This document shows, piece after piece, positions 7,264-23,574 of a stretch of 64,000 nt of DNA. Under the pieces are notes generated by a model. It saw nothing but the letters and a program-made list of their open reading frames with translations, was not told the DNA's origin and did no database searches. A program made the translations under genes and the position numbers. The stretch comes from Terriglobia bacterium. Its GTDB lineage: Bacteria; Acidobacteriota; Terriglobia; 20CM-2-55-15. The stretch spans positions 320,001 through 384,000 of the forward strand of contig CAXWPJ010000012.1 in the NCBI GenBank assembly GCA_963664115.2, written 5' to 3'. The stretch's first letter is position 1; each line of letters starts with the position of its first letter.

Positions 7264-7617
7264 GGGGGCGCACCGGTTTCGACGGATGCGAAGATGCAGG
7301 AGATGCATACCGAGGTTCCACGATCCTCGTAAAACGCGTGGAAAACAATCAACTGCTGACAATCAGTTAGCAATGGCTGCCTAATACGCAGCCACGTCCT
7401 TGGTTAATTCGCCTGTAGGTTGATTAAAGGGCGTCACTTTTTGCAGGATAGCCTGTTGCGGCTGGCCCGGCGGCGGCGGGTGAAACTCAATGGGCTGGTG
7501 TTCCGGCCGGGTTGCAGGTGCCTTCGGGCCGGGACACGAGACAAATAGGAACCTGACAAGTATGTAGATTCTTCTGTTGAACGTTTTCGGACGCGGGTTC
7601 GATTCCCGCCGCCTCCA
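7264..7617 (+). ncRNA. ssrA: tmRNA
   Basis: 5' GGGGGCG...GGTTTCGAC; tag ORF 7355-7384 ADNQLAMAA*; 3' T-arm GCGGGTTCGATTCCCGC and acceptor CGCCTCCA; TATAAT at 7245-7250. Confidence 0.96.
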
Positions 7618-8360: not shown

Positions 8361-8369
8361 GAACGTTGT

Positions 8370-12351: not shown

Positions 12352-12411
12352 GAGTTCGACATAGTCCTGAACTGGTTTGAAGAACTGAAGGAACGGGTGC
12401 CGGTGCTCTAA
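12349..12411 (+). pseudogene. Ser/Thr kinase-family C-terminal tail
   Basis: LEFDIVLNWFEELKERVPVL*. Confidence 0.75.
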
Positions 12412-12544
12412 ACGACCATGAAAATGATTCTCAAGTCCTGTATCTGGACTCCTCTGTCAAGTAGGCGCAGCTCTCCCGTCAGCTTTCTTCGGCAAAATGC
12501 ATTCAGCAGGACTGACTAGAAGTTACGAGGTGAGTAGCTAGTCG

Positions 12545-12680
12545 ACTGCACCCGTATCTTCGGCCTCAAAAGTGGAACTGTATTGTTCCAGGCCATGATG
12601 GAAATTTGCGCGCGGGGAGCCAACCGATAAAATAACGGCCTCTAAGGGCCAAAGGACTTGTCGGCGTTGCCCCGCGCCGG
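12545..12680 (-). ncRNA. Predicted bridge/seek RNA of IS1111-A (boundaries approximate)
   Basis: Two stem-closed loops, each with an inner hairpin; guide segments match the target (CAAGTCCT, GATAAA) and the donor junction (CCATCAT, TATCT). Confidence 0.75.
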
Positions 12681-12748
12681 TCTGACCGGTACGCCATCAT
12701 CTCGAACCTCATCGCAGCTCGCTGAAAAGATATTCCGACTGTTCCGGG

Positions 12749-13783
12749 TCAGGCCGCCTGATACCGGGCCTGATGGTCACAGTCACGGTTCCAAACCGCC
12801 CACACGCGACGCGCCAACTTGTTGGCCAGTGCAACGATTGCCTTGTTGTGTCCGCGGAACTCGTGTTTCTGGAGACCCCATTGCTGGAGAGGTGTCGGTG
12901 TGGCGCCCTCTCGATGGGCACTCCACAACAGGGAACGGCCCCCATGAACCAACAGCATCCGGAGGTAACGATCGCCTTGCTTACTGATCCGGCCCATGCG
13001 TCGCTGGTTGCCACTGGAATGTTCCCGGGGTGTGAGTCCCAGATAACTGGCAAAATGGCGGGACGTTCGGAATCGTTTGATGTTTCCAACAAACCCCACC
13101 ATTGCCGTTGCCGTTAACAGGCCGATGCCGGGAATCGACGTCAGACGCGCGACCTCAGGCATCTGCCGAGCCAGCGTCTTCAACTCTTGTTCCACCGATC
13201 GCATGCGAGATTCCAATTCACGGATCTCGCCACACACCTGGTGAAACATCTCCCGAACGACACTGGGGATGACGACATCTGCATCTTCGATCAGCTCCAT
13301 TACCCCCGGCACCAGATGATCCGCTCCGGTCGGGATCACGTAGCCAAACTCCCGTAACAACCCCCGCACCGTATTGATCCGTGCGGTTCGGGTTCGCATC
13401 CACGCCGAACGGATTCGATGCAATGAGGTCAGTTGCTGTTGGGCCAGGGTTTTGACCGGCACTGGATGAATATCGCTGTCACGATAGGCTTCCAACAATC
13501 CTTTCACATCCGTACGGTCGGTCTTGTTGCGCCTGACGTAGGGCGTCACATACTGCGGCGAGATCAGAACGACCGTGTGTCCCAGTTCCCGGATCTTCCG
13601 ACCCCAGTAATGGGCGGATCCGCAGGCTTCCATCACCACGGTCGCCAGCTCCTGGTTCGCAAAGAACCCCAGAAACTTTGCCCGACTTAAACGATAGGTT
13701 TTCTCTACATGCCCGGGGCGATCTGAAACACCAATTTGAAAAACATTCTTTGCCAGATCCACTGCTATCGTTCTATTCTTCAT
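12749..13783 (-). CDS. IS110 DEDD recombinase/transposase A
   Basis: IAVDLAK, VMEACG, KTDRTD, SIPGIG, PREHSSG; AGGAG RBS before ATG 13783. Confidence 0.95.
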   Translation of the reverse strand: MKNRTIAVDLAKNVFQIGVSDRPGHVEKTYRLSRAKFLGFFANQELATVVMEACGSAHYWGRKIRELGHTVVLISPQYVTPYVRRNKTDRTDVKGLLEAYRDSDIHPVPVKTLAQQQLTSLHRIRSAWMRTRTARINTVRGLLREFGYVIPTGADHLVPGVMELIEDADVVIPSVVREMFHQVCGEIRELESRMRSVEQELKTLARQMPEVARLTSIPGIGLLTATAMVGFVGNIKRFRTSRHFASYLGLTPREHSSGNQRRMGRISKQGDRYLRMLLVHGGRSLLWSAHREGATPTPLQQWGLQKHEFRGHNKAIVALANKLARRVWAVWNRDCDHQARYQAA

Positions 13784-14145
13784 CTCGGACTCCTTTTTGT
13801 TCACACGTACACGTGTTTCGCCCGCTTTATTGCGAGGCTCAAAATGACTTTGGCACTTCGATGCCGACTCAGTCATCAAAGAGGAGTCCATACCATCAAT
13901 AAATCATCTTCTCGGACGTTGAGAATTGTGCGGCAGGTTTTGCCCCTCACAGGGAAATTTCAGTCCTCTGTGGGCGGGCGCGGTGCCAAAGCCTACGCTG
14001 ATGCACGATGCCTTGCGGGACGAGGACTGCCAGTCTGCCCGACTGGCCGAACACCTCCTATCGTTCGTTTAAATCCCAGTTTCGCCTTTGCCTCTCGGGC
14101 GAATCGAGTAGAATTATCCGTATACCGAAAACCACGAGGGGAGTC

Positions 14146-15289: not shown

Positions 15290-15329
15290 TTCTCAAGTCC
15301 TGAGAAATCATCTTCTCGGACCTTGAGAA
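15290..15329 (+). repeat. 40-bp site, intact copy d
   Basis: TTCTCA-AGTCC-TGAGAA-ATCATC-TTCTCG-GACCT-TGAGAA. Confidence 0.92.
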
Positions 15330-15359
15330 TTGGCCGTGATACTCGGGCTCACAACTTCC

Positions 15360-15430: not shown

Positions 15431-16234
15431 ATGGAATCCGGCACCAAACTCCTCCATTACGAGATCTCAACGCTCTTAGGTAAGGGCGGGATGGGAGAAG
15501 TGTGGCGTGCCAAAGACACCAAACTCGGACGTGAAGTCGCCATCAAGACGCTTCCCGAAGAGTTCGCCAGAGACGCAGATCGGTTGGCCCGCTTTGAACG
15601 TAAAGCGAAACTTCTTGCCTCTCTGAATCACCCCAACATCGCAGCCATTCACGGATTTGAAGAAGACAACGGGACGCACTTCCTTGTTTTGGAACTCGTC
15701 GAGGGGGACACCTTAGCCGACCGGGTGAAACGGGGTGCCGTTCCTGTTGAAGAATCACTCAAATTGGCTCTACAGATTGCCGAAGCGTTAGAGGCTGCGC
15801 ACGAGAAGGGTGTGATCCACAGGGATCTGAAACCGGCGAACATCAAGGTCACGCCCGATGACAAGGTTAAGGTGTTGGACTTCGGGTTGGCAAAAGCGTT
15901 TGAGGGAGAGGCTGTAGACGCAAACCTCTCGCAGTCCCCCACGCTGAGCATGGCAGCCACGCAGCAAGGAATCATTCTCGGGACAGCAGCCTATATGAGT
16001 CCCGAGCAGGCGAGTGGATCACCTACGGATAAGCGCGCAGATATTTGGTCCTTTGGCGTTGTGCTGTTTGAAATGCTTACCGGACGGCAGATGTTCACGG
16101 GCAAGACTGTGTCCCACATTCTCGCTGATGTCCTGCGTGCTGAGCCTGAGTGGAGCAGTTTACCGGCCAACCTACATCCGAGGCTTCGGATGCTGCTGGA
16201 ACGCTGCTTGGAGAAAGAAGCAAAAGACCGCTGC
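15431..16234 (+). pseudogene. Hanks-type Ser/Thr protein kinase, truncated by the IS3-like element
   Basis: GKGGMGEV, VAIK, HRDLKPAN, DFG, GTAAYMSPEQ; the frame runs into the IS end at 16235. Confidence 0.9.
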
Positions 16235-16293
16235 TGTACGTCGTCAGAATAATTCGGACAAAAAGACCATTTAGCTAAGAGACGGTTTTGAAG

Positions 16294-19671: not shown

Positions 19672-19824
19672 GCACGAGCCGCGTTTGGCGTTGACGCGAG
19701 GAGCAACAGCACGCCGCGAACGCTTTTGCGAGGGAGCATGGTCCCCGCCCCTTCTAGCATGCCTGTTTGACCTTGGATCGCCGGGCCCAGTCTAAAAAAC
19801 ACCTGAATAAGGTGGGCGCTGAAA

Positions 19825-19864
19825 TTCTCAACGTCCGAGAAGATGATTTCTCAGGACTTGAGAA
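19825..19864 (-). repeat. 40-bp site, intact copy e (inverted)
   Basis: Reverse complement = TTCTCA-AGTCC-TGAGAA-ATCATC-TTCTCG-GACGT-TGAGAA. Confidence 0.92.
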
Positions 19865-21876: not shown

Positions 21877-22169
21877 CGTTTTACTATGTCGCGCAAAGGA
21901 ACCGCGTAATTCTGGCAAGTCTATCTATGTGGAAGGGTTATAAGCAAGAAAAGGCGCAACTCCCGCATCTTACCCAATTCTCAACGTCCGACAAGATGAT
22001 CTATGAAAGGGGATGTCAAGAGAAACAGCTCCCCGATGGCCGGCCAGGCGGACACTTTTGTCGTGACAGCCAGCCCCTCTACCGTTATGTGAAGCCCTGG
22101 TTCCGGCAATCCGCAGCGAAATCGTACATCTTTAAGACGGTCGATTCAGAAACTGAACAGCAGATGGGA

Positions 22170-22305
22170 CGGCATGTGCCGACCATGGATCTATCTGAGC
22201 CTCGAAGGCTATCGCTGTTTCAGGTCGTGCGAGGGGGGATAGAGATTTAAAAGTGTCCTCTGGACGTATCCAGGGACCACATCTTGTGCAGATCCTCACC
22301 CTCGA
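22170..22305 (-). ncRNA. Predicted bridge/seek RNA of IS1111-B (boundaries approximate)
   Basis: Loops with inner hairpins; guides GATTTA/CATCTTGT match the target, GATCTAT/ATCGCTGT match the donor junction. Confidence 0.75.
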
Positions 22306-22370
22306 TCCTCAGTTGTTCCGACTCCGTCTAACGACTCAGTACGGCTCTACCGGTCACGGATCGAAACGGC

Positions 22371-23435
22371 TTATGTTGTCATCCAGCTCAGTTTCTTTGG
22401 ATCGAACGATTCTCCTTTCTTCCAAAGCGTCAGCACCAGTGCGGCGATCTTACGGGCCAGAGTGACCCGCGCCATTTCCTCCCGCATCCCACGCATCTGG
22501 AGACTCTCCAGATAAATCCGATACGGCTCGCTTTGTTTTCCCGATGCCGCGGCTGAGAAGAACACCGACTTCAATCGCCGGTTGCAGTTCGCATTCAATC
22601 CGCGTGTGGCCACCGGTTTCCTCCGTCGCACCACACGTCCACTCTGCATCTCATACTCCGCGCTCATGTGGGTCACCACACCCAGGCCACTGTAGCTCCA
22701 GAACTGCGGTGTCGTGCGGAATCGGTACGGCGTGTCCACGATGGCGACGATCTGTGCCGCCCGAACCGGTCCCAGTTGTGGAATGGTCTCGAGCAGTTTC
22801 ACCGCCTCATGGTGCCGGCCCTCCACTCGCACCGCTTTTCTGGATTGTTTCCGCAGCAACTGGACCTGGTCCAGTTCCGCATACAACCATCGGGCGCGCT
22901 GCCTCATCCCCGGCTCGGTCAGCTTCTCCAACCACTGTTCGCGCTGACTCGGCCGATAGACTCCGTCCTTCGGTGTCGGGATCCCCCGTCCCCGGTATAT
23001 CGCTTTGATCCGCGACATCACCCGTTGCGTGTCCAACTGGAACGTGTCATAGGCCTGCACCAGTTGCTTCAATTCTCGCGTCGCTTCATGGCCGTGATAC
23101 ACCGAGCGCAACAGTCCCACCCGCAACAGCTCGGCCAGCTTCCGCGCATCCGGCTTATCCCCCTTCGACCCTTCTTGCATCCACTTGTTCTGTCGCGGAT
23201 CGCACACCACCACCTCGCTCACCCACGGCCGGATCACTTCCGATAACCAGCCCGCTTGCGTGGTCTCCTCCAACCCCACGTGCATCGGCCCACTCAATCC
23301 CTCCAGCAGCCGTGTGATACTCCCCGCCTCGGTTTCCACGATCGTTTCAAACACCAGTTTGCCGCTCCCGTCTCTCACCGCAACCACCGTCGTTGCCTGG
23401 TGCACATCCATACCCATATACTTGTCTTGTTTCAT
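22371..23435 (-). CDS. IS110 DEDD recombinase/transposase B
   Basis: GMDVH, LEET, KGDKPDA, TIPQLG, FWSYSGL...HMSA; AGGAG RBS. Confidence 0.93.
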   Translation of the reverse strand: MKQDKYMGMDVHQATTVVAVRDGSGKLVFETIVETEAGSITRLLEGLSGPMHVGLEETTQAGWLSEVIRPWVSEVVVCDPRQNKWMQEGSKGDKPDARKLAELLRVGLLRSVYHGHEATRELKQLVQAYDTFQLDTQRVMSRIKAIYRGRGIPTPKDGVYRPSQREQWLEKLTEPGMRQRARWLYAELDQVQLLRKQSRKAVRVEGRHHEAVKLLETIPQLGPVRAAQIVAIVDTPYRFRTTPQFWSYSGLGVVTHMSAEYEMQSGRVVRRRKPVATRGLNANCNRRLKSVFFSAAASGKQSEPYRIYLESLQMRGMREEMARVTLARKIAALVLTLWKKGESFDPKKLSWMTT

Positions 23436-23574
23436 CTCGAACGCTCCTTTTCTGGGATCAACGCTGTATACGTTGATCAGGTTGTTGAGTGAGTCTTCTC
23501 TCAACAACCCCCAGTCTAGGGGCGTCCTTTCATACTGCGATTTATCGGGATCTGAGAATCAATTTCACTGCTAT

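Follow-up and report, generated by a model that had tools for sequence, protein, structure and literature searches.

RNA-guided insertion is an established mechanism (PMC11187229, PMC11208160), and the closest described systems are the IS1111 elements that use a seekRNA, together with IS621 and ISCro4 (IS622). According to PMC11187229, IS1111 elements have 11-13-bp subterminal inverted repeats at 7 nt and 3 nt from their ends and make no target duplication. ISEc11, ISPa11 (REP) and ISKpn4/ISPst6 (attC) have the same subterminal repeats, 7+3 extensions and downstream non-coding region as the element studied here, and the seekRNA elements described there share with it the 330-350-aa DEDD enzyme, the order of a top-strand match before a bottom-strand match in the element's own sense, and repeat targets with natural reprogramming among relatives. 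The present element differs from them in its target, in a second loop whose covarying donor guide and handshake can be read, and in that single-base variants and both arms of one repeat serve as targets for several lineages. With IS621/ISCro4 it shares, as far as those elements are described in the papers cited, the guide registers and a handshake at -3/-4 with one pair before and three after (PMC11208160, PMC11208158, PMC13626964); unlike IS621, it carries its RNA downstream, has no common CT core (target TG/CG, donor CA) and has a fixed left donor segment for which pairing with the RNA 5' end is predicted. IS1202-family elements at pdif/dif sites and the Acinetobacter dif modules (PMC10132070; PMC12907356) likewise show insertion sequences aimed at a repeated, possibly Xer-type site bounding mobile segments, but those elements are, as far as described, not RNA-guided, and here neighbouring sites are mostly direct repeats. 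The points of interest at our locus are a core that is unmatched throughout the clade and an undescribed repeat that is heavily targeted. Our main reading, to which we give a probability of about 0.88, is that copies of this IS1111 element occupy a single point in the repeat's ATAAA variant, likely by means of a small RNA from the downstream end that pairs with both target strands and with the joined element ends.

The element occupies positions 12441-13898 (minus strand, 1458 bp, delimited by its ends and inverted repeats) of the window, by which we mean the whole 64,000-nt stretch analysed, and is an intact IS1111-group insertion sequence. Its recombinase gene (12749-13783, minus strand) is a full 344-aa frame with PF01548 and PF02371 domains; it scores 316.6 bits against NF033542 (cut-off 140) and holds D9, E52, D89, D92 and S257, so that both the DEDD RuvC domain and the C-terminal catalytic serine of the IS1111 group are present, and the intact recombinase of the preliminary description is borne out. 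The only relatives found in the PDB are IS621/ISCro4 (IS622), with E values of 2e-11 to 3e-11. The inverted repeats start 7 nt and 3 nt inside the ends, as the IS1111 rule has it: the upstream end (13880-13898) consists of the subterminal repeat 13880-13891 and the 7-nt extension 13892-13898, in which the donor core CA lies on the plus strand, while the downstream end (12441-12455) consists of the 3-nt extension 12441-12443 and the subterminal repeat 12444-12455, the right donor being 12441-12445 (all minus-strand features). Non-coding sequence amounts to 308 nt downstream of the gene versus 115 nt upstream of the ATG, and the IS1111 anatomy proposed earlier, with the non-coding end after the gene, is therefore correct. 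In the genome under study (G000; C labels denote its contigs, and G024, G025 and the like are comparison genomes) the element occurs as six uninterrupted reading frames at 99-100% identity, two broken near-full copies and two partial relatives; no plasmid record spanned 80% of it in a plasmid record search. Two copies (C10:422122 and C5:206591) are interrupted in the non-coding end by another element, in both cases at the position equivalent to about window 12543, which is the 3' edge of the predicted RNA.

The insertion interrupts a 40-bp repeat whose left part lies at 12428-12440 (plus strand; its last two bases, TG, are the target core) and whose right part, beginning with the right target ATAAA, adjoins the upstream end at 13899-13925 (plus strand). 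Throughout the genome, identical downstream, RNA-side ends adjoin CAAGTCC(T/C)G in all nine cases, and seven of eight upstream ends adjoin ATAAA within a repeat; the eighth, in the C3 copy, adjoins ATAGA outside any repeat. Defining the uninterrupted site from 168 empty repeat copies gives the same target junction as that reconstituted from the window alone, and other copies occupy it, as these ends show. The empty copies fall into variants (ATAAA 33, AGAAA 81, ACAAA 25), and the occurrence of ATAAA at 7/7 occupied ends versus 33/168 empty repeats (Fisher p 2.1e-5, a test in which the window copy is counted, as is one variant end that has lost its guide RNA) argues that the element picks the variant spelled by its right guide. 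Exact targets for the window guide that are still empty number 22, and the window itself holds two empty copies of the AGAAA variant, at 15290-15331 (plus strand, unmatched by the window guide) and 19823-19864 (minus strand). Insertion is thus site- and orientation-specific and without duplication, the exceptions being the C3 upstream end and a relic at C7:45106, which has a truncated RNA end and a different right guide and lies outside the repeat. A further relic with a truncated RNA end, C12:18906, is inside a standard repeat site though its right guide reads TTGGG, possibly through placement in trans or change after insertion. In four other sequencing runs the element has roughly 10-18 times the depth of its flank and unitigs begin at 12440, and in runs X1 and X3 the upstream end continues into ATAAA at nearly full element depth. 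Copies are therefore found at one exact point in a repeat of ~170 copies, where they were likely steered by a small RNA.

The repeat is an imperfect palindrome of two arms around a 6-bp spacer, and a profile scan of the genome finds the 168 empty copies clustered in islands, with the spacer ATCATC in 129 and ACGACA/ACGACC in 20. Of four other genomes in the genus, three contain it (72, 33 and 8 pattern matches); four genomes of a single other genus have it one to three times each, and the other 53 genomes searched do not have it. The exact pattern had no match in viral contigs. On the transposase tree adoption of the repeat needs two changes, the well-supported branches being also compatible with one. 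The literature searched held no paper on this repeat, or on IS1111 at dif sites, although supplements may hold such cases. Eleven whole-segment matches were found, of which four pairs, representing three distinct segments of 347, 1247 and ~2750 bp, run from site to site, their flanks on either side being unrelated, while the remaining matches fall within larger duplications. These three recurring segments make the repeat cassette-like, which bears out only in part the earlier proposal that the target is a cassette site: no recombinase could be assigned to the repeat. One candidate, the tyrosine recombinase L219 (C5:52189-53139), was not found in G024 or G025; its gene is flanked by two ACGAC-class sites in inverted orientation. 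Another, a multi-copy recombinase/transposase pair, starts at no fixed distance from the sites and has no match among the G025 loci.

The repeat might be a dif-like site for host XerC/XerD, the element then being a parasite of a chromosomal module-shuffling system, a reading that we regard as a serious possibility short of even odds. The two arms around a 6-bp spacer fit it, and 13 of 22 arm positions equal those of a site on C2, a likeness with p 0.0015 against random 28-mers that rises to 0.09 with the inner motifs held fixed. This C2 site, which came from a pattern search, is close to a GC-skew switch and is one that we take to be dif-like. A XerC/XerD-like pair (C2:150503 and C9:863627 in G000) is common to G000, G024 and G025, but so is one phage-type integrase family, and the recombinase check in G024 covered 18 of 27 matches. 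The segments that recur from site to site would be expected of shuffled modules, for which the Acinetobacter dif modules, as described (PMC12907356; PMC10132070), are a precedent; against this, no whole segment is common to G000 (106 segments) and the fetched part of G024 (58), and neighbouring sites are mostly direct repeats (80/115).

Alternatively, the repeat could be a REP-like or attC-like single-strand hairpin and the element an ordinary REP- or attC-targeting IS1111, which we consider possible but rather doubtful. The repeat is an imperfect palindrome, often located immediately behind the end of a gene (a site or half-site comes after 83 of 123 kinase-tail motifs), and it forms inverted pairs at a spacing of 56-57 or 146 nt; two Y1 transposase matches (PF01797) and one integron integrase are present in the genome, and ISPa11 and ISKpn4 are described as targeting REP and attC sites (PMC11187229). 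Against it, the sites are clustered, and three contigs and the first 911 kb of C9 have none. As for attC sites, these have an invariant GTT box, a size above ~55 bp and a linked IntI; the present repeat is shorter, the base that would belong to GTT is G in only 48% of copies, and the integron integrase, at 196 kb from the closest site, has no match among the 12 G025 recombinase loci. The repeat therefore lacks the features of an integron attC.

Other mobile elements use the same repeat. An IS30 element (L309, C10:219900-221260; NF033563) is inserted at the spacer centre, 18 of its 19 ends lying in repeat halves, in either orientation and with an apparent 2-bp duplication. A second IS110-like element at window 21992-23540 (354 aa; 122 bits, below the cut-off) has 8/8 upstream ends at the repeat spacer, after ATAAA or TTAAA variants, and, by eye, 6/6 downstream ends at the repeat, which the scripted test missed. 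Three insertion sequence families that converge on the repeat point to a functional, undescribed site. Four ATAAA sites (C2:255646, C2:757888, C9:1129200 and C12:552683) lack 3 bp of the spacer, possibly as excision footprints of one of the elements.

How the element finds this site is, we believe, written in its non-coding end, where the six motifs of the preliminary description are all found at the coordinates given. Homologue alignments place the conserved core of the predicted bridge/seek RNA at ~12538-12700 (minus strand, as are all its parts), which is shorter than the full interval 12441-12748. In IS621, as reported in PMC11208158, left guides face -9..-1 of the bottom strand and right guides -2..+5 of the top strand, the handshake is at -3/-4 and the cut follows -1. 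Here, the putative target-binding loop (12611-12676) has an outer stem 12670-12676/12611-12617 and an inner hairpin 12636-12651; its left target guide (12652-12660) would face target -9..-1 with an 8/9 match, and its right guide region (12623-12631) comprises the guide 12627-12631, a core-facing CG (12625-12626) and the handshake GU (12623-12624). In the second loop, the right donor guide region (12551-12559) is built alike, with the guide at 12555-12559, a core-facing CG at 12553-12554 and the handshake GG at 12551-12552, and a candidate left donor guide (12595-12601) has a position like that of the left target guide, is invariant across donors and is also a helix arm, since it is predicted to pair through 12597-12601 with a 5' GAUGG (12694-12698; 100% paired, two of five pairs compensatory).

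Taken singly these matches are short. When the non-coding end is shuffled 100,000 times by a crude dinucleotide-block method, a 6-nt match recurs in 41% and a 5-nt match in 81%, both target matches together in 1.4%, both donor matches together in 3.5%, and all four in 0.017%; the real support for the guides is therefore comparative. The same holds for the fold. Folding the minus strand of 12441-12748, as had been proposed, gave no support, the whole 308 nt being no more stable than shuffles (z -0.69), and the interval was significant on neither strand; the target loop alone folds modestly better than shuffles (z -2.2, 3/200), the donor loop alone no better (z -0.74, 45/200). A consensus fold on 21 homologues has 96.4% of cells paired and compensatory change in 14 of 32 pairs, reached by 0/500 shuffles, a figure inflated by deriving the fold from the alignment on which it was scored. 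The predicted RNA structure is thus supported by covariation. An Rfam search of the window returned the tmRNA only and no family for the RNA at 12538-12700.

The comparative evidence comes from relatives at E <1e-40, present in 11 of 34 genomes of the family. In permutation tests the left guide scored 6.1 matches to its own target versus 4.37 permuted (19 groups), the right guide 4.16 versus 2.52 (13 groups) and the donor-loop handshake bases 1.55 versus 1.01 against target -3/-4 (19 groups), each with p 2e-5; in these tests five rows are left out as false or duplicate end calls, the relatives are not independent, and mis-parsing of the left guide in the L100 group and of the right guides of L173 and L183 lowers the observed scores. 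With distinct targets only, p is 2e-5 for the left guide (n=10), 4e-5 for the right (n=8) and 0.002 for the handshake (n=10). Two relatives outside the permutation parse, L090 and L091, fit by eye. Single bases are tracked as well: the right guide spells AGAAA in L097 and L112, and TTAAA in L086. Eleven G024 copies with the left guide CAACGUCCG are located in the repeat's other arm, as is the partial relative C10:272103 of the genome under study. Exceptions are L085, whose left guide matches at 5/7, and the G019/G026 and G016 groups, which tolerate several mismatches. Among 102 distant homologues, own-target matches exceed those to swapped targets and 0/300 permutations reach them. The claim that the target guides covary with their targets in homologues is in this way confirmed for both guides. 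The genus amounts to a natural specificity series, with near-identical RNAs for ATAAA, AGAAA, TTAAA and the repeat's other arm.

For the second loop the outcome is divided. Of 122 distinct non-coding ends, 92 contain a right donor guide for their own element end (permuted mean 23.8, 0/2000) and 30 do not, among them all 11 TCTGT ends, so that this guide covaries with the element end. The left segment, for which a programmed 7-nt donor match had been claimed, shows no covariation with the element end across homologues, where only an invariant CCAT matches throughout: the equivalent of 12595-12601 reads CCAUCA in most distant homologues despite donor ends of CCATTG (37), CCATTA (23) and CCATTT (3). 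In every aligned sequence the segment's first five bases are paired with the 5' GAUGG, two of the five pairs showing double changes; the 7-nt match is therefore partly scaffold, and its reading as a programmed guide finds no support in these homologues. Its CCAU is nonetheless a plausible constant donor contact, and we suggest that the segment is probably dual-use, a helix arm in the free RNA and a short fixed contact on the donor. In IS1111 elements donor-binding bases often sit in a multi-loop, according to Durrant et al. (PMC11208160).

The invariant, helix-forming left segment, along with the unremarkable fold of the donor loop, would also suit a scheme in which the target loop is enough, protein does most of the end recognition at the subterminal repeats and the second loop serves as scaffold; for ISEc11 an 82-nt RNA with the target matches is reported to have sufficed (PMC11187229). 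We think this unlikely, because the right donor guide changes with the element end across five end types (own 88/100, others 2/510) and the two bases that follow it track target -3/-4, from which it follows that the second loop must touch DNA. That the guide matches are chance, with targeting by protein or DNA structure, is highly improbable: single matches of 5 or 6 nt do turn up often in shuffles, but guides and sites covary in relatives and distant homologues alike. We conclude that the guides for the left target, the right target and the right donor change with their own sites in homologues.

Under RNA-guided insertion, a small RNA would be made from the element's downstream end and would base-pair with the target on its two strands and with the element's own joined ends. 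By analogy with IS621 and ISEc11, a circular intermediate would join the element ends and supply a promoter, and the recombinase would cut the top strands after target position -1 and then exchange them; for IS621, copy-out through one strand has been described (10.64898/2026.08.31.748434). Read directly, the window handshake goes from one Watson-Crick pair to three on top-strand exchange, the target-loop part being read by eye and for the window copy only. IS621 is reported to have the same one pair before and three after (PMC13626964), and as in that system handshake pairing may drive insertion forward. The donor loop's core-facing C follows the target, so that strand exchange would shift a C-A mismatch beside the cut out of the donor loop and into the target loop.

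As to the proposed intermediates, the computed circle junction has a TTGACA followed at 17 nt by a -10 box with three of six bases; no circle junction was found among the joints listed in contigs of eight runs, and a minus-strand promoter search at the element gave no good promoter. RNA-library contigs span 12541-12739 (X17) and 12419-12721 (X18) with a sequence identical to the window. The contigs of libraries X17-X20 are, however, unstranded and also cover the transposase and are therefore not counted as expression; strand-resolved RNA from the non-coding end was not seen in them.

The core of the element is unusual in that the base before the crossover differs between target (TG/CG) and donor (CA). 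In a census with ends placed by the 7+3 rule, and checked against empty sites only for repeat-targeting elements, target and donor have the base before the cut (-1) in common in 97 of 110 elements below 47% identity and in 0 of 30 closer ones, whose target is mostly CG or TG and whose donor is CA. The base after the right donor guide pairs, in 79 distant elements, with donor -1 in 77 and with target -1 in 73, whereas in the close clade it pairs with target -1 only. CA is kept at 35/35 homologue upstream ends and is absent from the downstream junctions (0/41; CG 33, TG 4, CC 4), so the products keep the top-strand letters. Unmatched cores in this way record which strand fixes the insertion product. 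No description of a natural core mismatch was found in the literature searched, in main text passages, although supplements may hold cases. Design of bridge recombinases is described as filtering for matching cores between both DNAs (10.1101/2025.05.14.653916), and a natural multi-copy clade with unmatched cores would, if true, loosen that rule. Only tentatively, and with more doubt than belief, do we put these observations together as an IS1111 clade that lacks an identical core base at the cut, whose donor-loop handshake has spread into the core, and which has been re-aimed repeatedly at an undescribed dif-like cassette-shuffling site (~170 copies per genome) also exploited by IS30 and a second IS110.

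Some observations concern the surroundings of the repeat. Sites of the ACGAC class have a conserved upstream flank of 200-290 nt and are often paired tail-to-tail with an ATCATC site at a distance of 56-57 or 146 nt. Many sites are preceded by the end of a Ser/Thr kinase gene and some are followed by a kinase start, many of these being relics; examples in the window are at 12364-12406 and 15431-16252. A full-length integron integrase (L001, C9:714608-715549) with a run of cassette-like genes lies far from the sites. Further repeat sites in the window are at 8369 and 21975, and the mobile-element-rich, repeat-bearing stretch starts ~750 nt after the tmRNA gene at 7264-7617.
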